The translations under genes were made by a program, and so were the position numbers. The notes beneath the pieces were generated by a model. The model saw nothing but the letters and a program-made list of their open reading frames with translations. It had not been told where the DNA came from and made no database searches. From positions 376 to 64,375 of the forward strand of contig JAPLWI010000014.1 in assembly GCA_026396675.1 (NCBI GenBank): DNA of 64,000 bases, written 5' to 3'. Positions 2,554 through 62,935 of the stretch are shown here, piece by piece. The DNA is from Candidatus Kaiserbacteria bacterium. Lineage in GTDB: Bacteria > Patescibacteriota > Minisyncoccia > Phycocordibacterales > Phycocordibacteraceae. Each line of letters opens with the position of its first letter. Within the stretch, counting starts at the first letter, position 1.

Positions 2554-3424
2554 GTTTGCGGAGCCACGCTTTTTGGCGGCGCGCATACTGCCAGAGCTTT
2601 GCCGAAAGCGTGTGTAGTAAAAGTGTCAAACACTCGGTGTTTGACACTTTGTTCTTGTTGAGGAATTCGCCAATGATTTTGTATTCAAGACCGAGTTCGT
2701 TAATTCGTTCGTCGCCATATTTTTCGCGTATGGTGCGGACTTCTTCAATAAGCCCGCGATCAAAGGCACTCGCAAGCCGTGCATCAATTCGTGCTCGTAG
2801 CTCTTCTTTTGGCGGATCAATAACAATCCACTTCGAGCAGTAGCGAGATTCCGAGCCAAACGAGGGACGAACAGGGACTTTTCCTTTTGTATCAATAATT
2901 TCTAACGCGCGGATGAGTCGGCGACGATTTTGTGGGTCGAGTTCAGAGGCGCGGCGCGCGTCCGCAGAACGGACGCGCGTGGACAATTCTTCTGTTGAAA
3001 GTTTTTCAAGTTCAGCACGAAATGCTGGATTCACGTCAATTTCGGGAATGGGACGCAGAAGTGCGTCAAAATAAAAATGCGTTCCACCGACAAGAATCGG
3101 TAGTTTCCCACGTTTCGAAATATCTTCAATTAAACGTGCCGCATCTGTAACGAAATCACCAGCAGAATAGATCTCATTCACATCGTGGATATCAATAAGA
3201 TGATGTGGCACCCCGCACATTTCTTCGGTTGTTATCTTTTCCGTACCAATATCGAGACCACGATACACTTGCCGCGAGTCCACAGAAATTATTTCTCCAA
3301 TGAAGGGTTTCGGAAATCCTTCACCTGATGAAGGATTTCCGAAACCCTTCAAAGCGATCTCAACCGCCAGCGCAGATTTACCCGAGGCAGTCGGCCCCAC
3401 GATGCAAAGAATATGTGTCGCCAT
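2516..3424 (-). CDS. miaA: tRNA dimethylallyltransferase MiaA
   Basis: P-loop CIVGPTASGKS plus SVDSRQVYRGLDIGT motifs. Start reset to MATHIL (3424) because the longer ORF (to 3469) would run into tRNA-Leu. Carries an in-frame palindromic insertion (GFGNPSSGEGFPKP). Confidence 0.85.
   Translation of the reverse strand: MATHILCIVGPTASGKSALAVEIALKGFGNPSSGEGFPKPFIGEIISVDSRQVYRGLDIGTEKITTEEMCGVPHHLIDIHDVNEIYSAGDFVTDAARLIEDISKRGKLPILVGGTHFYFDALLRPIPEIDVNPAFRAELEKLSTEELSTRVRSADARRASELDPQNRRRLIRALEIIDTKGKVPVRPSFGSESRYCSKWIVIDPPKEELRARIDARLASAFDRGLIEEVRTIREKYGDERINELGLEYKIIGEFLNKNKVSNTECLTLLLHTLSAKLWQYARRQKAWLRKLNLVTSSHQDRS
3305..3347. repeat. Palindromic in-frame insertion element, copy A (diverged), inside miaA
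   Basis: GGGTTTCGGAAATCCTTCACCTGATGAAGGATTTCCGAAACCC. About 84% identical to copy B. Encodes GFGNPSSGEGFPKP in the miaA frame. Confidence 0.7.
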
Positions 3425-4548: not shown

Positions 4549-6133
4549 TTTTCAGAGGTTTCTTTTTCTTTTTTTGTAATCTCGCTGGTTCGCTCATACC
4601 AAGCGCGGCGCGGATATGCCTCCGCGCGAGTGAGGTACGTGCAATTTCAAGCCACTTCGACGAAGGATGTGCGGCATCGCGTCGTATAATTTCAACAACC
4701 TCGCCATTATTTAATTGTGTATCAAACGAAACAAGTTTTCCGTTTACCTTCGCGCCTTGAATGTGATTCCCAAGATCGCTATGTATCGCATAAGCGAAAT
4801 CAATTGGCGTTGATGCTGCGGGTAAATCAACAACATCACCTATTGGGGTAAAGACGAACACGCGATGCGAGAAAAAATCCTCCCTCAAACCCTCTACGAA
4901 TTCTTCAGATCCAGCAACTTCCGCATGCGCTTCAGCGAGCTCGGCGAGCCACAACGGAACTTTTACAGGATCTTTTGTTCCATTTTCTTTTCCGGAAACC
5001 TTCATGAGTGATGGGATGAGCGAGCGAACCCAAGAAAAAGAAAGCGACGAGAACCGATTTTTTTGAACGTCTTTTCCAAGTTTTTCAATTCCTTTACCGA
5101 GTTGTTTATAGGACATGTGTGACGCGATGCCGAATTGTGCACGGCGATGCATTTCTTCAGTGCGAATCTGAATTTCAACAATGCCCGCTTCAGGTGTCAC
5201 AACCGTCGTGTGCAGCGATTGATAGCCGTTCGGTTTAGGGAAGGCGATATAATCCTTAAACTCGCCTGGCAATGGTCGATACATCGCATGCACGACGCCA
5301 AGTGTGGTGTAACAATCCTCAATTTCCGGCACAATAATACGGAGCGCGGCAATGTCGTGAATGAGCGTTATGTCATCATGTTTCCTTTTAAGTTTTTGAT
5401 GCAAGCTCCACAGACCTTTCATGCGAATGTCAGTGCGGAATGTCACGAGATCTTTCTTCGCTAATTCTCGTTTCAATTCTTTTTGTACTTTTGCGAGACC
5501 GTCTTCGGTCTCTTTCGTCTTCAATTTAAGCATTTCGGCGGTATGTCGTGCAGCATCAGGATCTACGAATGGAAATGAAGAGTCCTCTAGATTGCGTTTC
5601 ATCCTTCCCATACCGAGTCGGTCGGCAATGGGAGCATAAATTTCTAGTGTTTCGAGCGCGATACGACGACGTTTCGGTTCAGACACATATTCAAGCGTCT
5701 GCACATTGTGTTTTCTATCTGCAAGCTTCACGATGAGCACGCGAATATCACTAGCCGTCGCAACAAGTAGCCGACGAAGCGATTCGGCATGGCGTTCGGC
5801 GCCTCTATATTTATGTTTACCGAGTTTCGTTACGCCATCAACAATGAAGAGCACTTCCTTCCCGAATTCCTTTTCAATTTCTTCGCGCGTGGTACAACCG
5901 TCTTCAACTGCATCATGGAGAAGTCCTGCAACAATCGTCGTTGCATCCATTCCGTATTCAGCGAGGATTTTTGCCGTTGCCGCCGGATGAATAAAATATG
6001 GTTCACCCGAATAACGCATTTTATTCTCATGCGCTTTCTTGGAGAACTCGTATGCCTTCTCGATAAGCGCAATGTCCTCGGATGAAGGGTTCTTCATCTC
6101 GCCGATAATCTCCTTAACGGTCGTCAGCGCCAT
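4538..6133 (-). CDS. rel: Bifunctional (p)ppGpp synthetase/hydrolase, RelA/SpoT family (short form)
   Basis: HD domain (LLHDAVEDG), RelA/SpoT synthetase region and TGS domain. 531 aa, so the ACT domain is probably absent. Confidence 0.85.
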   Translation of the reverse strand: MALTTVKEIIGEMKNPSSEDIALIEKAYEFSKKAHENKMRYSGEPYFIHPAATAKILAEYGMDATTIVAGLLHDAVEDGCTTREEIEKEFGKEVLFIVDGVTKLGKHKYRGAERHAESLRRLLVATASDIRVLIVKLADRKHNVQTLEYVSEPKRRRIALETLEIYAPIADRLGMGRMKRNLEDSSFPFVDPDAARHTAEMLKLKTKETEDGLAKVQKELKRELAKKDLVTFRTDIRMKGLWSLHQKLKRKHDDITLIHDIAALRIIVPEIEDCYTTLGVVHAMYRPLPGEFKDYIAFPKPNGYQSLHTTVVTPEAGIVEIQIRTEEMHRRAQFGIASHMSYKQLGKGIEKLGKDVQKNRFSSLSFSWVRSLIPSLMKVSGKENGTKDPVKVPLWLAELAEAHAEVAGSEEFVEGLREDFFSHRVFVFTPIGDVVDLPAASTPIDFAYAIHSDLGNHIQGAKVNGKLVSFDTQLNNGEVVEIIRRDAAHPSSKWLEIARTSLARRHIRAALGMSEPARLQKKKKKPLKIKS

Positions 6134-6178
6134 AGGAGCACACTATACACCCTAGTAGAAATAATTTCTAATTTTCAT

Positions 6179-8572
6179 CTATTTCAAATACTCTGCTGCT
6201 TCGGCGGGAGTGAGAAAATCGGCGGAGACGGAAGTGGGAAGATAAATACGGCGCAGGCCTTTTTTCAAAAATAGCCCTTGTTTAGATTTATAGAGCGAGA
6301 GCATTTTGCCGGTACGCGGATGTTTACCAATTTCTTTTACGAGCTCAACGCCTTTCGTTTGTTTTTTTGGCTCGGCGAGAAGAGCGAGCGCTTCATCAAG
6401 CGTGATGGTGTATGGATCTTTCCCGCTTGCAACTTTTATGGAACGAAACTCGCCATCACTGCCGACATACGGACCGAAACGACCGGTTGATGCGAATACC
6501 GGCTTGCTAGTTGAAGGATGCATTCCTAATTCGCGTGGTAGCGAAAGATATTTAAGAGCGTCGGCAAGTGTTACTTGTGCGATATCGATACCTTTTGGAA
6601 TGCTCGCGCGCTTCGCCGCCATTCGCGGTCTGCCGCGTTTGGCGGCGCCCCGCGGAGCCTTGGCGGAGTGGGGTTCTTTTTTTGGCACCTTCTCACCTTC
6701 GCTCGTCGGCATCTCAACATACGGTCCGAATCTTCCTGTCTTTACATAAATCGGTACGCCGGTTTCAGGGTGATTTCCGATTGGTTCGTCACCTTTTAAT
6801 TCAGTACCTTCTTCGGTTCGTGCACCGAGACATTTTGGATAATGTTTGCAACTCATGAAAACGCCGCCGCGACCAAGTTTGAATTCCATTGGGCCTTCGC
6901 AAATTGGGCATGGGAATTCAGGAGAAGTATCACCGAGGGAAGTCGCTTTTGGCAATTTATCTTTCGCATGCACCGCTTTCTCAAACGGACCGTAGAATGC
7001 CGAAAGTGTTTCCGTATACCCGCGCTCACCGCGCGCGATTTCATCTAGTTCATTTTCCATTTCCGCAGTAAAAGTATCACTTACATATTCGGGGAAGTGT
7101 TCCTCAAGCCACCCAGAAACGACCATACCGGTCGCTGTCGGTTTCAATGCACGAACAATCTTTTCGACATAACCACGATCCTGAATCGTTTTCATAATCG
7201 AGGCATATGTAGAAGGACGCCCGATGCCGCGCTTTTCAAGTTCTTTAATAAGACCGGCTTCGGTGTAACGATTTGGCGGTTCAGTTTGTTTTTCTTCTGC
7301 ACCGAGCGATAGAAGCGTTAGCGGATCACCGACAGAAAGTTTCGGCAATTCTATATCTTCACTGCGTGCTTTCGTATCGAGAGCAAGCCATCCGGGGAAG
7401 AGGAGTCGTGAACCAGTTGCAGAAAAAAGAGGAATATCGCGGTCGGCTTTTGCAGTAATGCTTGTACGCATAATTCGCGCGGAAGCCATTTGCGAAGCGA
7501 GCGCACGTGTGCGAATTAATTCATACAATCGTTCTTCGTCCGGTGTTGAACCGGCATGCGCGTGGCTAGAATCAGTTGGGCGAATCGCCTCATGTGCTTC
7601 TTGCGCATTTTTGCTCGTAGTTTTATATGCACGCACATGAAGATATTCTTTGCCAAATTCTTTTTCAACGATACCCGCCATTTTTGCGACGGCTTCTTTA
7701 GCGAGATTCACCGAGTCGGTACGCATATAAGTAATGTGTCCTGCCTCATAGAGTTTTTGCGCGGCGCGCATTGTTCGCGAAGGAGCGAAACCGAGTCGTG
7801 TTGAGGCGACTTGTTGCAATGTTGATGTGGTAAACGGTGGACGAGGATTACGATCCTCGGCTTTTTCTGTAACATCAGCCACATTCCATCTCGCGCTTCT
7901 TCCGATTTGCACAATCCGGTCTGCTTCTTCTTTTGTCTTCGGTTGCTCGCTACAAGTCGCCGCTATATCGCCGGATTTTGATTTGAAGAGCGCAGAAAGC
8001 ACGAAATAAATTTCTGGCACGAACGCCTTAATTTCTCGTTCGCGTTCAGCTAGGATGCGAAGTGCAGGTGATTGCACGCGCCCGGCCGACAACCCGTACC
8101 GCACTTTTTTCCAAATAAGACCGGAAAGATCGTAGCCGACAATGCGATCCAATACGCGCCGCGCTTCTTGCGCGCGGCGCAAATCCTCGTCAATCGCACG
8201 AGGGTGTGCAAGGGCATCTTCAATAGCATCCTTCGTGATTTCGTGAAAGACGACCCGTTTCGATTTTTTCAAATTCGCGACTTCCTTAATGTGCCAAGCG
8301 ATTGCCTCGCCTTCGCGGTCTGGGTCAGTTGCTAGATAAATTTCATCTGCTTTTGTCGCCGCGTGTTTTATTTTTTCAATCACTTCGTGCTTGCCGGCTG
8401 AAACGACATAGCGCGGAATAAAGCCGCCTTCAATATCGACGGCGTCTTTATTTGATTTCGGCAAATCGCGCACATGTCCGACCGAAGCAAGAACGGTATA
8501 GTCCTTGCCCAGGTAATGCCCTATAGTGCGCGCCTTGGTTGGCGACTCAACGATAAGTAATTTGTGGGTCAC
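6179..8572 (-). CDS. topA: DNA topoisomerase I
   Basis: Toprim N-terminus MTHKLLIVESPTKARTI. C-terminal zinc ribbons (CPICEGPMEF...C, SCKHYPKC). 797 aa. Confidence 0.95.
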   Translation of the reverse strand: MTHKLLIVESPTKARTIGHYLGKDYTVLASVGHVRDLPKSNKDAVDIEGGFIPRYVVSAGKHEVIEKIKHAATKADEIYLATDPDREGEAIAWHIKEVANLKKSKRVVFHEITKDAIEDALAHPRAIDEDLRRAQEARRVLDRIVGYDLSGLIWKKVRYGLSAGRVQSPALRILAEREREIKAFVPEIYFVLSALFKSKSGDIAATCSEQPKTKEEADRIVQIGRSARWNVADVTEKAEDRNPRPPFTTSTLQQVASTRLGFAPSRTMRAAQKLYEAGHITYMRTDSVNLAKEAVAKMAGIVEKEFGKEYLHVRAYKTTSKNAQEAHEAIRPTDSSHAHAGSTPDEERLYELIRTRALASQMASARIMRTSITAKADRDIPLFSATGSRLLFPGWLALDTKARSEDIELPKLSVGDPLTLLSLGAEEKQTEPPNRYTEAGLIKELEKRGIGRPSTYASIMKTIQDRGYVEKIVRALKPTATGMVVSGWLEEHFPEYVSDTFTAEMENELDEIARGERGYTETLSAFYGPFEKAVHAKDKLPKATSLGDTSPEFPCPICEGPMEFKLGRGGVFMSCKHYPKCLGARTEEGTELKGDEPIGNHPETGVPIYVKTGRFGPYVEMPTSEGEKVPKKEPHSAKAPRGAAKRGRPRMAAKRASIPKGIDIAQVTLADALKYLSLPRELGMHPSTSKPVFASTGRFGPYVGSDGEFRSIKVASGKDPYTITLDEALALLAEPKKQTKGVELVKEIGKHPRTGKMLSLYKSKQGLFLKKGLRRIYLPTSVSADFLTPAEAAEYLK

Positions 8573-8611
8573 GTTATTAACTCATAGCGCGTATACCTAT
8601 ATATGGTCAAG

Positions 8612-8746
8612 CCCGCACACCTAGTTTGCCATCATTGTTTTTGTGCTAGGAATGATTATTTCTATCTTAAAAACTATCATGGTAGGTCCTGTGGAAAACT
8701 ATTTTTTAAAACAACGTAAAGCACAATGGCAAACTAGGTGTGCGGG
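8612..8746. repeat. 21-bp perfect inverted repeat pair (CCCGCACACCTAGTTTGCCAT / ATGGCAAACTAGGTGTGCGGG) about 93 bp apart. The left arm lies just upstream of the topA start and the right arm ends next to the EEP stop.
   Basis: Arms at 8612..8632 and 8726..8746, with an AT-rich loop between. Each arm is flanked by GGTCAAG. The element abuts both gene ends (topA start at 8572, EEP stop at 8747). Confidence 0.6.
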
Positions 8747-9550
8747 TCAAGTGAGTTCAGCGAATATCGGGTGATGATCGGAACCGTAACGATCAGAAAT
8801 AACTTCTGTATTTTTAATTGAAAATGAGTTCGAAACGAGAATATGATCAAGTTGACTTCGCGAAAGCGGATGGGTGATTCTGCCGGAGAGTGCATTCGTC
8901 AACTCGTATTCTACAAAATGTTTTTCAATAACAGTACGCTCACGATGATGAAAAAAAACATCGCTGAAGCGGCCGCCGAGAAGCCAATTGATTGGCGTAA
9001 TATGCAGTTTTTCTAGAATATTAAAATCACCGCAGACGATAGTCGGTAATTGTGGGTCTTTTTGAAGCATTGCATATTTAAACTCTTCTTTACGAATGTT
9101 CGGGTGCATTAGTGGTAGGTGGAGATTAAAAACACGTACACAGCCATACCCTGGTATATTAGTGTCGACACAAAGTGCGTGACGGTTTCCTAATCCTTTC
9201 ACCCAGATTTGTAAATCTTGAAGGCCATACATTATTCGTGCAACGAAACGACTACGCAACGGTAATGTGGGTTCATAGTGTTTCAACGGTATGGCGTTTG
9301 ATCGAATTATTGGATATTTAGAAAGGGTTGCGTTAAAAATAGTCGTATGTTTACCGCGAGAAATTAAATTGCTTTCGGACGCATATGTTAAGTGATGTAG
9401 CGACGTCTTCAGCCGTTCTAGAAATTCTTTAGAAACTTCCTGCAGACAAAAAATATCAAAATCGCTCTGTTCGATAAATTCAAATGCGCGATCAAGATCG
9501 CGGTTACTATATAGCATATTCCAAGAGTAGATTTTCATATTCTGTGCCAT
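8747..9550 (-). CDS. Endonuclease/exonuclease/phosphatase (EEP) family protein
   Basis: YSWNM, DIFCLQEV, GDFNIL and SDHHPI motifs characteristic of the EEP fold. Confidence 0.7.
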   Translation of the reverse strand: MAQNMKIYSWNMLYSNRDLDRAFEFIEQSDFDIFCLQEVSKEFLERLKTSLHHLTYASESNLISRGKHTTIFNATLSKYPIIRSNAIPLKHYEPTLPLRSRFVARIMYGLQDLQIWVKGLGNRHALCVDTNIPGYGCVRVFNLHLPLMHPNIRKEEFKYAMLQKDPQLPTIVCGDFNILEKLHITPINWLLGGRFSDVFFHHRERTVIEKHFVEYELTNALSGRITHPLSRSQLDHILVSNSFSIKNTEVISDRYGSDHHPIFAELT

Positions 9551-10389
9551 GCGCCGAATTCTTCGCGGACGAGTCCACGCAGTTCGAGCGCGACGAGTGC
9601 TGTTAGTGCCTCACCGGCTCCAGCATCACTTTCTCGTAAGATCTCATCGCGTGTTTTTGGCTCTTCAAGCATATTCCAAATCACGAGTTCAGCATTTTCT
9701 AAGTCAGTCGGTGCCGCTGTCGTGCCTATTTCGCGCGGCGGAATGTGAAGCGCCTCAAGAATGTGAAGCGGTTCGCAGACGAGCGCGGCGCCAAGACGGA
9801 CGAAGAGGTGCGGACCGAAGGAGTGCGGATCGCCAATACGATGGGGAATACAGAGCAGGTCGCGATTATATTCACTCGCGAGGCGCGCAGTGATCAGCGT
9901 GCCGGATTTCTCACCTGCCTCAATAACCAGTACCGCATCTGCGAGCCCTACCATCAGGCGATTACGTTCGGGGAAGTAGTGTATATGTGAGGCCTGGTCA
10001 GGCGCATATTCAGAAATGAATCCGCCGCCTTTTTCTAAAATTTCTTTTGCGAATGCGCGATTGCTTCTCGGATACAAAACATCGTCACCGAGGCCGGAGC
10101 CCGGCACGACGAGTGTATGAAGCCCAGCATCAAGCGCCGCCTTATGTGCGCAAGTATCAACTCCGAGTGCGAGTCCGCTCACAATAGATATCGGATAACC
10201 AGCGAGACCAGAAATAAGTTTTTGACACGCCTCCTGTCCGTAGCGCGTCATCGCTCGGCTCCCGACAACCGTTAAAAATTTCGTTCCTGCTGGCGGCAAC
10301 GTACCGCGCGCCCACAGCTTCTTCGGCTGTTGCGGTATTTCCAATAATTGTTTCGGCCACTCCTTTTTCGGCAGTTCTCGAATTTCCAT
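9535..10389 (-). CDS. dprA: DNA processing protein DprA (Smf)
   Basis: Rossmann-like DprA core (LTVVGSRAMTRYG, GLALGVDTCAHKAAL, VLVIEAGEKSGTLITAR). Confidence 0.85.
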   Translation of the reverse strand: MEIRELPKKEWPKQLLEIPQQPKKLWARGTLPPAGTKFLTVVGSRAMTRYGQEACQKLISGLAGYPISIVSGLALGVDTCAHKAALDAGLHTLVVPGSGLGDDVLYPRSNRAFAKEILEKGGGFISEYAPDQASHIHYFPERNRLMVGLADAVLVIEAGEKSGTLITARLASEYNRDLLCIPHRIGDPHSFGPHLFVRLGAALVCEPLHILEALHIPPREIGTTAAPTDLENAELVIWNMLEEPKTRDEILRESDAGAGEALTALVALELRGLVREEFGAWHRI

Positions 10390-12907: not shown

Positions 12908-13902
12908 CATCATTTTGGAATCAATTGCCGAAACCATTTTTTGCGATGGCGCCGATGAAAGATGTGACCGACGTAGCATTCCGCACCGTCGTTGCTCGGC
13001 GCGGGAAACCAGATGTGTTTTGGACAGAATTTGTGTCGGCAGATGGTCTTTCCCATGCTGTGCCTTCGCTTTTACGAGATTTACAATTCAATAAAGAAGA
13101 ACACCCTATCGTTGCGCAGATATTCTCTAGCAAGCCGGAGATGATTGCATACGCGACGAAACTAGTTGCGCAGTTGGGATTTGACGGAGTTGACCTCAAT
13201 ATGGGATGTCCAGACCGTGCAATTGAGAAGCAGGGCGCGGGTGCCGCGCTGATGAAAAATCCTAAACTCGCTGTTGAAATCATCAGAGCGGCAAAAGAGG
13301 CAAGCGATTTACCAGTGTCGGTTAAAACGCGTGTTGGCTACAGTAAAGAGTCACTAGACGAGTGGTTGCCAATTCTTCTTGAAGCAGAACCAGCCGCGAT
13401 TACGATTCACCTGCGTACACGAAAAGAATTGTCGCTCGTTCCAGCCGATTGGGAATTGATGAAAAAGGCAGTAGCAATCCGTAATCGCATCAATCCGAAC
13501 GTGTTACTCATCGGCAATGGCGATGTTGGAAGTTTAGAAGAAGGGAGGCGGCTTGCCGCAGAGACCGGATGCGATGGAATAATGATTGGTCGCGCAGTAT
13601 TCGGCAATCCGTGGGTATTCGAGCGCATTTCAGGACTTCGTAAATCCTCCTCTGAATTTGGATTTACGAAGTCCCAACATTCCGAACATGGGCTAGATGA
13701 AAAATTAGAAGCGCTTCTCGAACTCGCCCAAGAATTTGAAAAAATAACTCCGCCCAAAAACTTTTCAATTCTCAAAAAACACATCAAAGCATTCGTCACC
13801 GGTTTCTCCGGCGCCGCCGAACTGCGTGCGAAATTGATGATGGCGAATAACGCTACTGAACTGAAGGGATTGATAGAAATGGAAAAGGGCGCTCATCAAT
13901 AA
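12904..13902 (+). CDS. dus: tRNA-dihydrouridine synthase (Dus family)
   Basis: TIM-barrel Dus motifs (MAPMKDVTDVAFR, DLNMGCPDRAIEKQGAGAALM). Confidence 0.8.
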   Translation: MTSFWNQLPKPFFAMAPMKDVTDVAFRTVVARRGKPDVFWTEFVSADGLSHAVPSLLRDLQFNKEEHPIVAQIFSSKPEMIAYATKLVAQLGFDGVDLNMGCPDRAIEKQGAGAALMKNPKLAVEIIRAAKEASDLPVSVKTRVGYSKESLDEWLPILLEAEPAAITIHLRTRKELSLVPADWELMKKAVAIRNRINPNVLLIGNGDVGSLEEGRRLAAETGCDGIMIGRAVFGNPWVFERISGLRKSSSEFGFTKSQHSEHGLDEKLEALLELAQEFEKITPPKNFSILKKHIKAFVTGFSGAAELRAKLMMANNATELKGLIEMEKGAHQ

Positions 13903-25387: not shown

Positions 25388-25672
25388 CTAATGTTTCTTT
25401 GGGTCTAGTTCCCACCAGAATTTTTTGCCAAAATTTTGTGCCTGACTGCACACACTTTTTAAATAATATAAATCCTGCGTCGGTATTTTTTCTAGAACCG
25501 TGCCAAGATGCGCCATCGTCATAGGTGCGAGACCATCATTCTTACGAGAATAATTCAGATGCCGAAGAAAGAAACGCATCAACTCACCGCGTTCGGTTTG
25601 ACGTTTCCGTCCCTTCGGCGCTTCTGCCGCCTTTTTTTCGATATCGGGAAGGATTTCACCAATGGATTTCAT
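25388..25672 (-). CDS. Hypothetical protein
   Basis: ORF trimmed to the internal Met (MKSIGEI) to resolve overlap with the GIY-YIG gene. Basic, no recognised domain. Confidence 0.3.
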   Translation of the reverse strand: MKSIGEILPDIEKKAAEAPKGRKRQTERGELMRFFLRHLNYSRKNDGLAPMTMAHLGTVLEKIPTQDLYYLKSVCSQAQNFGKKFWWELDPKKH

Positions 25673-25956
25673 CCCGTTAGAGATAGGAAACGCTTCATTC
25701 TGTTTTTCAAATATCGTTTCCCCATTCCCGTTTTTAGATATTTCTCTCGTGCTGCGGCGTCGTTTATATTGAGGCATGCTTCGTAATATATTAACTCATA
25801 CGGACGATGCTGTTTTGTCCACCCGCTTTGACCTTTCTGATGCTGGCTGAAGCGTTTCCGTAAATCGTTCGTGACTCCCGTGTACCAATAATCGCTTGAA
25901 AGGCTTCTGATGACGTACACATAACACATTTTGGTATCTCTAACGGGATTCATCAA
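25669..25956 (-). CDS. GIY-YIG nuclease domain protein (small, YhbQ-like)
   Basis: YVYVIRS...DYWYTGVTNDLRKRFSQH matches the GIY-YIG catalytic core. Confidence 0.6.
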   Translation of the reverse strand: MMNPVRDTKMCYVYVIRSLSSDYWYTGVTNDLRKRFSQHQKGQSGWTKQHRPYELIYYEACLNINDAAAREKYLKTGMGKRYLKNRMKRFLSLTG

Positions 25957-28328: not shown

Positions 28329-29092
28329 TAACATCCCTCGACAAAACTCGGAACCTTCGGCATCATGCGTTTGTAATAGAGGCAGAAGCGGAGGAGGGGA
28401 TTGAAGTAGCGCAGAGGTGGGCGAGTGAAGAGCTCGGAATTAGTGCAAAAAATAATCCTGACATTGTCGTGTTGCGTTACGGGCTTTTCTCGGTTGCCGA
28501 CGCCCGACGTGTCCTAGAGACCGCCGCAAGCGCGCCATTCGCTGGCGAGAATAAAGTACTTATCATCGCTGCGAGCCGCGCATATCACGAGGCGCAGAAT
28601 GCACTCCTAAAACTTTTTGAAGAACCACCGCGGAACACATTTATTTTTTTCATATTACCATCGCTTGGTGGGCTACTGCCGACCTTACGTTCGCGCGTTC
28701 AAATTTTTGATGTTAAGGGTTTCGGAAACCCATCATCAGATGATGGGTTTCCGAAACCCATCATTTCAGAAGCAGCGATGGAGTTTATGAAGGCGAGCAA
28801 AGAAAAACGCAGTGCGATAATTAAGAAGCTCACAAGCGGGAGAGACGAAGAAGAAAAACGCGAACTGCGCGATGAGGCGATCGCGATTCTGAACGGCGTT
28901 GAAGCGATTGCATATAAAAAATACGGGTCTACGAGACCCGTAATTTCTGAACTTCTGTCGGACATTCAGATTCTGCGCGGGTATCTCTATGACCGTTCGG
29001 CGCCTGTGAAAATGATTCTCGAACATCTTTCACTCGTTATTCCCGCCTCGCCGAAGACGGCGAGTCGAGGCGGGCTAAAGGATTTGCTATAA
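28325..29092 (+). CDS. holB: DNA polymerase III delta-prime subunit
   Basis: Start overlaps the mreB stop (ATGA). KLFEEPP and TLRSRVQ clamp-loader motifs. Carries the in-frame palindromic insertion GFGNPSSDDGFPKP. Confidence 0.75.
   Translation: MITSLDKTRNLRHHAFVIEAEAEEGIEVAQRWASEELGISAKNNPDIVVLRYGLFSVADARRVLETAASAPFAGENKVLIIAASRAYHEAQNALLKLFEEPPRNTFIFFILPSLGGLLPTLRSRVQIFDVKGFGNPSSDDGFPKPIISEAAMEFMKASKEKRSAIIKKLTSGRDEEEKRELRDEAIAILNGVEAIAYKKYGSTRPVISELLSDIQILRGYLYDRSAPVKMILEHLSLVIPASPKTASRGGLKDLL
28717..28759. repeat. Palindromic in-frame insertion element, copy B, inside holB
   Basis: GGGTTTCGGAAACCCATCATC-A-GATGATGGGTTTCCGAAACCC. Perfect 21-bp arms around a 1-nt centre. Confidence 0.8.
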
Positions 29093-40948: not shown

Positions 40949-41845
40949 ATGGAAGCCCGTCACGACAGCATCTTAATGAATGAAGTGCTTGAGGCACTCA
41001 ATATACATCCGAGCGATACCGTTGTAGATGCCACGATCGGCGGTGCGGGGCATTTTGCAGCACTGCTCGCCGCACTCGGAGAGGGCGGCATTATTATCGG
41101 TATTGATGCAGATCCTGCTGCAGTTGAACGCGGACGCGAAGTGTATGCTCTTGATCGTCGACCTGATCGCCCAATCGCGTATCTTGTAAACGATAATTTT
41201 CGCAATCTCACGCGTATTCTTGAACGGCTCGGCATCGGACAAGTTGATAAAATTCTTTTTGATTTCGGTTGGAGCGGGTATCAGATTGCATCACCGCGAG
41301 GTTTTTCCTTTCAAAATGATGAACCGCTTCTTATGAATTATTCAGAGACAGGAGAAACTGCGTCCGATATTGTTAACACTTCTTCGGAAGAGGATTTAGT
41401 TGCTCTCATCTTCACATTCGGGGAAGAGCGTTTCGCGCGTGGCATCGCGCGCGCGATTATCGCTGCTCGTTCCAAAGAGAGAATCCTCACTACAGGAGCG
41501 CTCGTTGCCGCGATTAAAGCAGGAACGCCGCGCTGGTATCAGAATAGAAAAATTCATCCAGCGACCAAGACCTTCCAAGCGCTTCGCATAGCTGTTAATG
41601 ATGAAATAGGCGCTCTGCGCGAAGGGCTCGCCGCTGCGCTGCAATCGCTCGCACCTGGAGGCCGTATCGCGATTATTTCTTTCCACAGTATTGAAGATCG
41701 CGTTGTAAAAAATCTCTTACGCGATGCGATGCAATCGGGGTTTGGATCGCTCGTTCCGAAAAAGCCAATAGTGCCGATGCGCGCAGAGATTATTAAAAAT
41801 CGCCGAGCGCGGAGTGCAAAGCTCCGCATTTTTTATGCCCAGTAG
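40949..41845 (+). CDS. rsmH: 16S rRNA (cytosine1402-N4)-methyltransferase RsmH
   Basis: SAM motif DATIGGAGH and FQALRIAVNDE signature. Confidence 0.9.
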   Translation: MEARHDSILMNEVLEALNIHPSDTVVDATIGGAGHFAALLAALGEGGIIIGIDADPAAVERGREVYALDRRPDRPIAYLVNDNFRNLTRILERLGIGQVDKILFDFGWSGYQIASPRGFSFQNDEPLLMNYSETGETASDIVNTSSEEDLVALIFTFGEERFARGIARAIIAARSKERILTTGALVAAIKAGTPRWYQNRKIHPATKTFQALRIAVNDEIGALREGLAAALQSLAPGGRIAIISFHSIEDRVVKNLLRDAMQSGFGSLVPKKPIVPMRAEIIKNRRARSAKLRIFYAQ

Positions 41846-41852
41846 CACAACT

Positions 41853-42212
41853 ATGGACAAGAACTTTCATCACACATCGTACGCAACAACACCTAGAAAA
41901 CGGGTTGTGCTACTGGGTATGCATAATTTCTTTTCTCTTTTCTCTTTCTCACTGCCGAAAATTTGTTTCGGCACGATTACTGGTCTCGTTGTCATCTACA
42001 TCGGCCTTATTGCTGTAGTGATGAGTTACGCAACGCTCACAATTGAATTTTCTCAATCAGTTAGAAATGATGAAGCGAAAGTCGCAACGCTTGAATCGCG
42101 CTATCTCAAAATAGTGGAGCACACCACAGCAATTGATTACGCTGCGGCCGGATATGCGCTTCCTATCGCGAAAATATTCGTGCCAGCAAAAAGCGTAACG
42201 GCACTCCGTTAA
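41853..42212 (+). CDS. ftsL: FtsL-like cell division protein (single TM plus coiled coil)
   Basis: Position between rsmH and ftsI. One TM helix followed by a short coiled coil. The start is uncertain. Confidence 0.4.
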   Translation: MDKNFHHTSYATTPRKRVVLLGMHNFFSLFSFSLPKICFGTITGLVVIYIGLIAVVMSYATLTIEFSQSVRNDEAKVATLESRYLKIVEHTTAIDYAAAGYALPIAKIFVPAKSVTALR

Positions 42213-60370: not shown

Positions 60371-61728
60371 TAAGATAGTATAGCAATTGCCTTTCGTATT
60401 CGCGAAATCGTTTCTTCTTTACCGAGAATTGAAATGAGCGTGAATGGATCAGGCGAACGGTCTTGTCCGGAAAGAGCGTAACGAAGAGGCCAAAGCATGG
60501 CTCCCCTACCACCCTTTCCTTTTTCCTCTTCGGCGTCGGCGAGCGGCATAAGCGCGTTCTTGACTATCTCAGCTGATAAATCGTTAGGAAGGGCTTCTAT
60601 GGCCCCAGAAAGGCCTTCTAAGGCCGTTTTAGTCATATTTGGGCAATCATTCAGCTCCTTGGCGATGAGCTTATTCGGGTCAAGTGCGGGTTCATTAAAC
60701 AGACATGAAAGTTCGTTTGAAAGCATATCTTGTGCTTCTTGAAATGTCTTCGCGCGTTCCTTCAGAAGCGGCACGGCTTTCTTCAGAATTTCTGAATTGA
60801 GGGACTTCGTAAATCCATCATCTGATGATGGATTTACGAAGTCCAAACATGCAAGGAATTTTTCATCAGAAAGTTGCCGCATCCAATGCTGATTGACTGA
60901 AAGAAGTTTCGTTTCATCAAAGATGGCGCTTCCCTTCTGCACGCGCGAAAGATCAAATGCTTCAATAAGTTCTTTTTGCGAAAGATATTCACGATCATCA
61001 CCGGGATTCCAGCCGAGGAAAGAAAGATAATTGAGCATCGCTTCAGGCAAAAATCCTAGATCGCGGTATTCAGTCAATGCCTTTGCACCAGTGCGTTTTG
61101 AGAGCTTTGTGCGATCACTGCCGAGAATGAGCGGTAAATGCGCATACATTGGCGTAGTAAAACCGAGTGCACGCTGAATAAGAATTTGGCGTGGAGTATT
61201 TGAAATATGATCCTCTCCGCGAATAACATGTGTTACATTTTCATCCGCATCATCAACGACAACCGCGAAGTGAAACACCGCCTCATCAAAAGATCGCGCG
61301 ATGACAAAATCGCCGAGGTCGCTTACATCCATCGTTATATTGCCGCGAATAATATCCGTAAAAGAAACTGCACCACCAGGATTTCTGAAACGGATGACCT
61401 CTTCCCTATCGCCTGGATTTTTTGGCGTCTCTTTAGAAATATACGCACTATCATCTGCAACAAGTTTTTCAAGAAGCTCGCGATAACGTATTTTGTGTTC
61501 GCTCTGGCGATACTGTTGATCAGCGGCAAGATTAAGCCACGCAAGCGCCTCTTTAATATTTGATTCATATTCAGGTTTTGATCTTGCAGAATCAGTATCC
61601 TCTATGCGCAAAATAAATGAGCCACCGGAATGTCTCGCGAAAAGATATGCGAATACAGCTGTTCTGTAATTTCCGGCATGCAAGAGGCCAGTTGGTGAAG
61701 GTGCGAAACGGGTAACAAAATTGCTCAT
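60370..61728 (-). CDS. gltX: Glutamyl-tRNA synthetase
   Basis: FAPSPTGLLHAGNYRTA (HIGH) and KLSKR (KMSKS). Carries the in-frame palindromic insertion (DFVNPSSDDGFTKS). Confidence 0.9.
   Translation of the reverse strand: MSNFVTRFAPSPTGLLHAGNYRTAVFAYLFARHSGGSFILRIEDTDSARSKPEYESNIKEALAWLNLAADQQYRQSEHKIRYRELLEKLVADDSAYISKETPKNPGDREEVIRFRNPGGAVSFTDIIRGNITMDVSDLGDFVIARSFDEAVFHFAVVVDDADENVTHVIRGEDHISNTPRQILIQRALGFTTPMYAHLPLILGSDRTKLSKRTGAKALTEYRDLGFLPEAMLNYLSFLGWNPGDDREYLSQKELIEAFDLSRVQKGSAIFDETKLLSVNQHWMRQLSDEKFLACLDFVNPSSDDGFTKSLNSEILKKAVPLLKERAKTFQEAQDMLSNELSCLFNEPALDPNKLIAKELNDCPNMTKTALEGLSGAIEALPNDLSAEIVKNALMPLADAEEEKGKGGRGAMLWPLRYALSGQDRSPDPFTLISILGKEETISRIRKAIAILS
60802..60844. repeat. Palindromic in-frame insertion element, copy C, inside gltX
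   Basis: GGACTTCGTAAATCCATCATC-T-GATGATGGATTTACGAAGTCC. Identical to copy D. Confidence 0.8.
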
Positions 61729-62892: not shown

Positions 62893-62935
62893 GGACTTCG
62901 TAAATCCATCATCTGATGATGGATTTACGAAGTCC
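62893..62935. repeat. Palindromic element, copy D, intergenic between ftsW and murG
   Basis: Identical 43-nt palindrome to copy C. Lies between the ftsW stop (62944) and the murG start. Confidence 0.8.

Follow-up and report, generated by a model that had tools for sequence, protein, structure and literature searches.

We analysed a 64,000-nt stretch of DNA (the window; contig JAPLWI010000014.1) from Candidatus Kaiserbacteria, a lineage of the candidate phyla radiation (CPR)/Patescibacteria, in which genomes are small and gene-dense. The subject is a perfect inverted repeat located between topA, which encodes DNA topoisomerase I, and a gene of the endonuclease/exonuclease/phosphatase (EEP) family. 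An earlier note, made from the sequence of the window alone, had described this repeat as a pair of 21-bp arms around a 93-bp loop and had offered two interpretations, a miniature inverted-repeat transposable element (MITE) or a cruciform that regulates a supercoiling-sensitive topA promoter. The locus consists of the following features, given in window coordinates unless stated otherwise (a slash within a sequence marks a junction):

6179..8572, minus strand: topA, DNA topoisomerase I, 797 aa, GTG start; Pfam Toprim, Topoisom_bac, Zn_ribbon_Top1 and Toprim_C_rpt
8578..8611, minus strand: conserved block upstream of topA, putative promoter, CTTGACCATATATAGGTATACGCGCTATGAGTTA
8607..8611, no strand: copy 1 of the putative target-site duplication, TCAAG, within the -35 hexamer TTGACC of the putative topA promoter
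8612..8632, no strand: terminal inverted repeat, topA side, CCCGCACACCTAGTTTGCCAT
8612..8746, minus strand (orientation relative to topA/EEP): inserted element, 135 bp, non-coding, bounded by the perfect inverted repeat and missing from the metagenome contig L095
8726..8746, no strand: terminal inverted repeat, EEP side, ATGGCAAACTAGGTGTGCGGG, the reverse complement of CCCGCACACCTAGTTTGCCAT
8747..8751, no strand: copy 2 of the putative target-site duplication, TCAAG, which holds the EEP stop codon TGA (8749-8747, minus strand)
8747..9550, minus strand: EEP family gene, Pfam PF03372
Filled junctions: GAACTCACTTGA/CCCGCAC and GTGCGGG/CTTGACCATAT
1064-1198 of metagenome locus L010: homologous 135-bp copy

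Both the geometry and the gene context given in the note were borne out. The arms at 8612-8632 and 8726-8746 are 100% complementary (21/21) and lie 93 nt apart, the GTG start codon of topA is located 40 nt from the left arm, and the TGA stop codon of the EEP gene directly adjoins the right arm. Within the 64-kb window, matches to an arm with up to three mismatches are restricted to these two positions, and none was obtained in 100 shuffles. The element has a G+C content of 39%, compared with ~47% for the window, and contains only chance open reading frames (ORFs) of 38-43 aa. In silico, the region folds far more stably than shuffled sequences, both as RNA (-59.3 kcal/mol, z = -7.4) and as DNA (z = -7.5).

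The direct repeat GGTCAAG, which the note had placed on the outer side of both arms, required a correction. The heptamer indeed occurs at both 8605-8611 and 8745-8751. The copy on the right, however, shares two bases with the end of the arm, and the non-overlapping flanking repeat is the 5-bp sequence TCAAG on the plus strand, that is, CTTGA on the gene strand. It looks like a 7-bp repeat because the element itself ends in GG.

The genes immediately around the element are a relA/spoT-family gene, topA, the EEP gene, the transformation gene dprA (upstream of the EEP gene, 9535-10389) and serS. The EEP protein is 100% identical to an NCBI protein from a metagenome-assembled genome labelled 'Candidatus Kaiserbacteria', and an exact-protein look-up of the topA product returned no record.

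Filled and empty forms of the insertion site

Short Logan contigs encoding the exact EEP protein come from about a dozen sequencing runs; the organism is present in ERR15302166, -170, -182, -187, -198, -205, -206, -213 and -223 and in SRR20698650. In at least 10 Logan assemblies, the filled allele is identical to the window through the element. A single contig, L095 from run ERR15302170, shows a different arrangement: it matches the window with 0 mismatches over 10068..8752 (1317 nt) and then continues at 8611..8584 (28 nt). In total, 1345 of 1345 nt agree, and what is missing is exactly 140 bp (8612-8751), which corresponds to the 135-bp element together with one copy of the 5-bp repeat. The empty junction reads ...GAACTCACTTGACCATATATAGG..., and the ends of the element as set by this empty allele coincide with the outer ends of the arms. 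Filled and empty alleles coexist on an identical background in nature.

Logan contigs are derived from a de Bruijn graph with k = 31, in which each 31-mer is unique per accession (PMC12424806). A jump over a 7-bp repeat cannot be an artefact of such a graph, and the reads must therefore contain the empty junction of L095. Because this contig is unbranched across the junction, the empty form dominates in the ERR15302170 sample. It is possible that the junction arose as an amplification artefact of the library.

For a comparison with relatives, we examined the closest EEP loci (L007, L008/L009, L099 and the P0002 contig) and the 80 closest topA loci in species-representative genomes, the latter encoding proteins with 56-84% identity to the topA product of the window. 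The element is missing from these ~85 related Kaiserbacteria loci, which carry a single CTTGACC that opens the conserved block upstream of topA. In L007 and L099, this single CTTGACC lies within ~10 nt after the EEP stop codon. By gene coordinates, the gap between EEP and topA measures 45 bp in L007, 45 bp in L099 and 34 bp in the P0002 contig. Among the 80 closest topA loci, no copy of the element was detected by blastn, by an arm search allowing up to five mismatches or by a covariance model. The earlier note had suggested a comparison of orthologous topA upstream regions and had regarded a single-copy structure conserved across relatives as the mark of a regulatory hairpin. We found empty sites in all related loci, with the promoter block kept in most of those listed, and the structure is not conserved across relatives.

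At the level of sequence comparison, these outgroups show the ancestral state of the site to be empty. The ancestral sequence can be given as ...GAACTCA-CTTGACC-ATATATAGG..., in which the EEP stop codon TGA lies inside the -35 hexamer TTGACC.

Other insertions are found in the same region. In the close relatives L008/L009, a different insertion occupies this intergenic position: the gap between EEP and topA extends over 380 bp (5781-6160), with an ORF for 64 aa rich in lysine and glutamate and, after it, a terminator-like hairpin (6055-6106). Another small insertion separates the promoter block from the topA start in L017 (~7880-8000), L019, L029 and L014, with shorter variants in L011, L012 and L045. 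Insertions of the L017 type begin with the first ~10 topA codons GTGACTAAACGATTACTGATCGTCGAATCGCC, continue with a hairpin (CCCCATGAGAT...ATCTCACGGGG) and end with a diverged copy of the 5' codons that carries a new ATG. This layout creates an upstream ORF of ~29 codons (hand translation), the TGA of which overlaps the new start codon (ATGA). The 5' region of topA seems to be a site of recurrent rearrangement.

The putative topA promoter block and a second family member

The block at which the element is inserted has a 34-nt consensus, CTTGACCATATATAGGTAtgCGCGyTATGAGTtA, and is located directly before the topA start codon. It is kept in most of the 54 listed topA loci (L011-L064) as well as in L007, L008, L010 and L099, and conservation in relatives begins exactly at CTTGAC. 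We infer that the block represents the topA promoter, composed of a -35 element TTGACC, an 18-nt spacer and a -10 element TATGAG. The start codon follows 8-10 nt past TATGAG (8 in the window), and the topA mRNA is probably leaderless. A consensus scan called no promoter at 8578-8611; the block was missed because its -10 element lacks the final T.

Besides the putative -35 and -10 elements, the whole 18-nt spacer is conserved, which suggests an operator or a supercoiling-sensing spacer in combination with a leaderless topA mRNA. The upstream gene has its stop codon inside the block in many lineages: the EEP genes end with TGA in the -35 element, and genes of the PF09997 family, with the C-terminus LDHI, end at TAG. 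Ancestrally, the upstream gene and the topA promoter are not separated by a terminator.

The Logan contigs L001-L006 and L091-L096, whether filled or empty, all end in the block at 8580-8584. The most likely explanation is that co-occurring Kaiserbacteria species have the same promoter sequence over at least 31 nt; the promoter of L062, for example, is identical to that of the window over at least 35 nt. An interpretation of the contig ends as evidence for a mixture of alleles was dropped, since filled and empty contigs stop alike and the promoter is shared with relatives. Conserved promoters can break up metagenome assemblies made with k = 31.

A second member of the element family was identified in L010, the sole metagenome match to the arm, the sequence of which is identical in three assemblies. 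Its left arm is the same as that of the window, while the right arm shows two mismatches. Both are uncompensated: one is G-U-compatible on the sense strand, the other (C-U) breaks the pair. Like the copy in the window, the L010 element adjoins the CTTGACC of a topA promoter, and it is oriented alike with respect to topA. The promoter block is ~97% identical between the two filled loci. The left junctions read CTTGA/CCCGC in the window and CTTG/CCCGC in L010.

The gene upstream of the L010 element encodes a PF09997 membrane protein and not an EEP protein. Its reading frame runs into the arm and ends with ...L-ARTPSLPLC and a stop codon. In relatives, at least four PF09997 homologues end with ...LDHI and a stop codon; the intact promoter, read as CTT GAC CAT ATA TAG, encodes this C-terminus. 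The ancestral state was therefore empty in the PF09997 context as well.

Based on alignment counts, the two copies are ~91-93% identical over 57 nt at the EEP-side end (the first in gene orientation) and over 35 nt at the other end, whereas the middle ~43 nt cannot be aligned. Nevertheless, both copies are exactly 135 bp long, and the arms are spaced 114 bp centre to centre in both. Over the first 801 nt of topA, the two lineages share 69% identity, and only 44% at third codon positions. Measured against this value, the ends of the element are under constraint and the centre is not. Such conserved ends would be expected if they serve as recognition sites of a mobilising enzyme, but they would also fit a host-selected structure.

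At the N-terminus, the topA products of the two filled lineages share 80% identity, and each shares 85-89% with those of empty relatives. On a neighbour-joining tree, 7 taxa make up the smallest clade to include both filled lineages; the other five are empty, and in 60 bootstrap trees this clade always had at least 5 taxa. Judged from these trees, the two filled lineages are not sisters. The simplest account would be two separate insertion events at the same position, and two such insertions imply a strong target preference. We also considered one ancestral insertion followed by many precise losses. This would demand ~4 losses within the 7-taxon clade in addition to an exchange of the upstream gene with a breakpoint precisely at the boundary of the element, and it was judged less likely because of these losses, the boundary exchange and the PF09997 genes of relatives that end in the intact promoter. 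Taken together, the comparisons show that the second lineage acquired its diverged member of the family at this position in an event of its own.

Nature of the inserted element

We consider it probable, with moderate confidence, that the inverted repeat constitutes the two ends of a 135-bp non-autonomous, MITE-like mobile element inserted at the upstream edge of the topA -35 hexamer. The element displays several traits of a MITE: a length below ~600 bp without coding capacity for a transposase, exact terminal repeats, a target that is single-copy in the empty site, and an insertion polymorphism. The term MITE-like is used as far as the data go, since on present data the element is low- or single-copy and bound to one site. 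The corresponding proposal of the earlier note holds with respect to the terminal repeats, the target duplication, the empty sites and L095; further copies and an autonomous partner, as would be expected of a MITE, were not found in the sequences searched.

The insertion took place at an ancestral site where the EEP stop codon TGA overlapped the -35 hexamer TTGACC, and it duplicated CTTGA. One copy holds the EEP stop codon and the other an intact -35 element. Because the duplication rebuilds both, neither gene is damaged, and the site is unusually permissive in this respect. According to this model, a transposase or recombinase encoded elsewhere, not in the window, would mobilise the element via its conserved ends, presumably recognising the 21-bp repeats and the subterminal stretches of ~35 and ~15 nt next to them. 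The element would also strongly prefer the target CTTGA(CC) at this promoter. The perfect terminal repeats and the 4-5-bp duplication lead us to prefer a DDE transposase that acts in trans as the mechanism. For the host, the element would most likely be a tolerated passenger; any effect should result from the very stable hairpin that it interposes between the topA promoter and transcripts reading through from the upstream gene.

A number of results weigh against this model. No further copies of the element were found in the window, either by arm searches with up to three and up to five mismatches or by blastn-short with the element. The exact arm gave 0 matches in species-representative genomes, viral contigs gave 0 matches for the exact arm or a degenerate version of the other arm, and in the JGI metagenome collection the exact arm was found in L010 only, at the same site. 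The Logan contigs run unbroken from EEP through the whole element into the promoter; together with the uniqueness of every 31-mer, this disfavours a second identical copy with other flanks in ~10 samples. Neither a transposase-encoding element with matching ends nor a second arm pair was found in the sequences searched, and the 43-aa ORF inside the element had 0 matches among 1.84 billion representative proteins. Moreover, the flanking repeat is 5 bp long in the window and only 4 bp (CTTG) in L010. Finally, the empty allele could be a site that was once filled and then lost the element by a hairpin-promoted, precise deletion between the 7-bp repeats, rather than one that was never filled. Hairpins promote deletion between short repeats, and the polymorphism could have either direction, a recent insertion with persistence of the old allele or a recent precise deletion.

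Additional searches for copies covered 1.26 Mb of related loci, in which the arm with up to five mismatches matched only the known arms. A blastn search of the element against all loci recovered only the known copies, a covariance model built from the two copies identified nothing new, and distant blastn searches of plasmids and phages gave chance-level short matches only. Phage contigs from an 18-mer scan were rejected as copies, because the match is 20/21, lacks an inverted partner and corresponds roughly to the chance expectation. The contigs in question are two homologous IMG/VR phage contigs, L097 (11388-11408) and L098 (4854-4874), in which the arm-like sequence CACGCACACCTAGTTTGCCAT is located just downstream of a phage gene. 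Since the window contains no second arm pair, any transposase encoded there could not be bounded by these ends. At the gathering threshold, Rfam models matched only five tRNAs in the whole window. Permissive Rfam matches to the element were discarded, as they involved generic miRNA-hairpin models far below the cut-off, which are expected of any long hairpin. The consensus scan called no sigma-70-like promoter or intrinsic terminator inside the element. In a full-text literature search, we found no paper describing MITE-type elements in CPR/Patescibacteria.

MITEs are non-autonomous derivatives of DDE insertion sequences, and their families usually comprise tens to hundreds of copies. The topA element resembles bacterial MITEs in its size (~135 bp), its lack of coding capacity, its ~21-bp perfect terminal repeats, the short target duplication, the long hairpin formed if it is transcribed, its intergenic promoter-proximal location and its insertion polymorphism between strains. 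It differs from them in that a single copy can be detected per genome, in having no known parent insertion sequence and in the one target that both members occupy. The Correia/NEMIS elements of Neisseria are the closest MITEs in size; Correia elements duplicate TA, whereas the topA element duplicates CTTGA. IS1380-type elements generate 4-5-bp duplications and have ends starting with CC. The topA element shares with these and other DDE insertion sequences the 4-5-bp duplication and ends that begin with CC(C), a similarity that serves as a lead only, and differs in that no transposase gene or full-length element with such ends was found in the data searched. The repetitive extragenic palindromes and their mosaics (REP/BIME), the enterobacterial repetitive intergenic consensus (ERIC) sequences and the Rickettsia palindromic elements are likewise small, hairpin-forming intergenic repeats able to act as RNA, but they are high-copy and have no clear target duplication. 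Palindrome-associated elements derived from IS200/IS605 carry a subterminal hairpin at each end and have neither terminal inverted repeats nor a target duplication; the perfect terminal repeats and the flanking duplication of the topA element do not fit this class.

Among the alternatives, a site-specific process that does not involve a DDE transposase is unlikely, yet it is a serious competitor. Such a process could be driven by a dedicated recombinase acting on a short core (CTTGA or CTTGACC) or by spread through natural transformation, and our assessment applies to both variants jointly. In the transformation variant, the promoter and the 5' end of topA would act as homologous anchor and CTTGA as microhomology on the other side (homology-facilitated illegitimate recombination). 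The flanking repeat would then represent a crossover core or a microhomology and not the duplication left by a staggered cut. A process of this kind would account for the location of both members at the identical nucleotide and in the same orientation relative to topA, for the apparently single-copy state without copies found elsewhere, and for the ~97% identity of the promoter block between the filled loci. The vicinity of dprA, which adjoins the EEP gene, fits the transformation variant. In contrast, perfect 21-bp repeats exactly at the ends are a hallmark of ends recognised by a transposase, and the left junctions differ (CTTGA vs CTTG), unlike a fixed crossover core. The homologous anchor would measure only ~40 nt, with topA DNA 69% identical between the filled lineages.

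The closest precedent for a dedicated recombinase would be the IS110/IS492 family. These elements are not known to have long terminal inverted repeats and encode a DEDD recombinase as well as a bridge RNA, which is ~177 nt long in the case of IS621. With 135 bp, the topA element is too short for a bridge RNA plus ends and cannot hold a recombinase, nor was one linked to it. On the other hand, elements of the IS110 family are excised without a scar and inserted at specific targets around a short core (PMC11208160), and the topA element is similar in having one specific short target, a scarless empty allele and a low copy number.

A combination of these ideas, in which a single-copy, site-specific element homes to the upstream edge of the -35 hexamer in the conserved topA promoter, spreads horizontally among lineages via a recombinase or transformation and has intact ends because its hairpin shields topA from upstream read-through, would make the element a mobile regulatory cassette of the gene for supercoiling control in CPR bacteria. 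We regard this version as distinctly unlikely.

A cis-regulatory module selected by the host is very unlikely. In RNA form, it could be a 3'-terminal hairpin of the upstream transcript that serves as insulator, processing site or stabiliser; as DNA, it could be a structure or a pair of protein-binding sites that tunes the topA promoter. In its favour is the ~91-93% conservation of the ends despite saturated synonymous sites between the lineages, together with the equal length (135 bp), arm spacing (114 bp) and orientation of both copies despite the diverged middle. The very stable fold, the G-U-compatible one of the two L010 arm mismatches and the ancestral lack of a terminator upstream of the topA promoter would also be in agreement with such a module. 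However, the element is missing from ~85 relatives with the same promoter and dispensable in the otherwise identical haplotype L095, and there is no compensatory change, the C-U mismatch in L010 breaking a pair. No Rfam family reaches its threshold, and neither promoter nor terminator was called inside the element. With a 93-nt spacer, cruciform extrusion is kinetically unlikely. The second proposal of the earlier note, a cruciform that regulates a supercoiling-sensitive topA promoter, was not upheld, given a structure that is missing in ~85 relatives and dispensable in the same population.

An inverton, in which the 93-bp segment flips between the 21-bp repeats and switches expression of topA or EEP, is extremely improbable: the layout of ~20-bp repeats around a short AT-rich segment just upstream of a gene is that of invertons in general, but at least 10 filled assemblies and L010 show a single orientation, no invertase or recombinase is encoded by the immediate neighbours, no promoter was called inside the segment, and the natural variation concerns presence or absence of the whole unit, not its inversion.

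A small insertion with terminal inverted repeats is a known kind of element, and the phylum is under-studied. What lifts the locus somewhat above routine is the clean presence/absence polymorphism combined with the same promoter nucleotide being hit in two lineages. It provides a clean case of a small mobile insertion segregating in a natural CPR population, and the diverged copy at the same nucleotide in the second lineage points to target specificity for a promoter with a 34-nt sequence conserved throughout the family. If the element affects or insulates expression of topA, it would offer a natural experiment for the study of supercoiling control in an uncultured lineage. If it has no effect on topA, it would still be of use as a strain marker and as a warning against taking every perfect hairpin beside an essential gene to be regulatory.

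Other repeats in the window

Two imperfect inverted repeats are present at other positions. The first (41828-41927) consists of 24-nt arms with 83% complementarity and a 52-nt spacer. The second (25671-25949) has 20-nt arms with 90% complementarity and a 239-nt spacer; it is located where ORFs of at least 130 aa are separated by an unusually long stretch (~580 bp), in which no tRNA or Rfam match was obtained.

The window also harbors a family of ~43-nt palindromes with at least five copies (3299-3347, 13633-13674, 28717-28765, 60802-60844 and 62893-62935), the sequence of which is not related to that of the topA element. Two of the copies are identical perfect palindromes, and the half-site has the consensus GGACTTCGTAAATCCATCATC. 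One copy is located at the start of murG, beside the end of ftsW. The copy at 60802-60844 lies in frame inside the ORF for glutamyl-tRNA synthetase, between the catalytic and the anticodon-binding domains, where it encodes the peptide ...DFVNPSSDDGFTKSL...; this in-frame palindrome resembles the Rickettsia palindromic elements.

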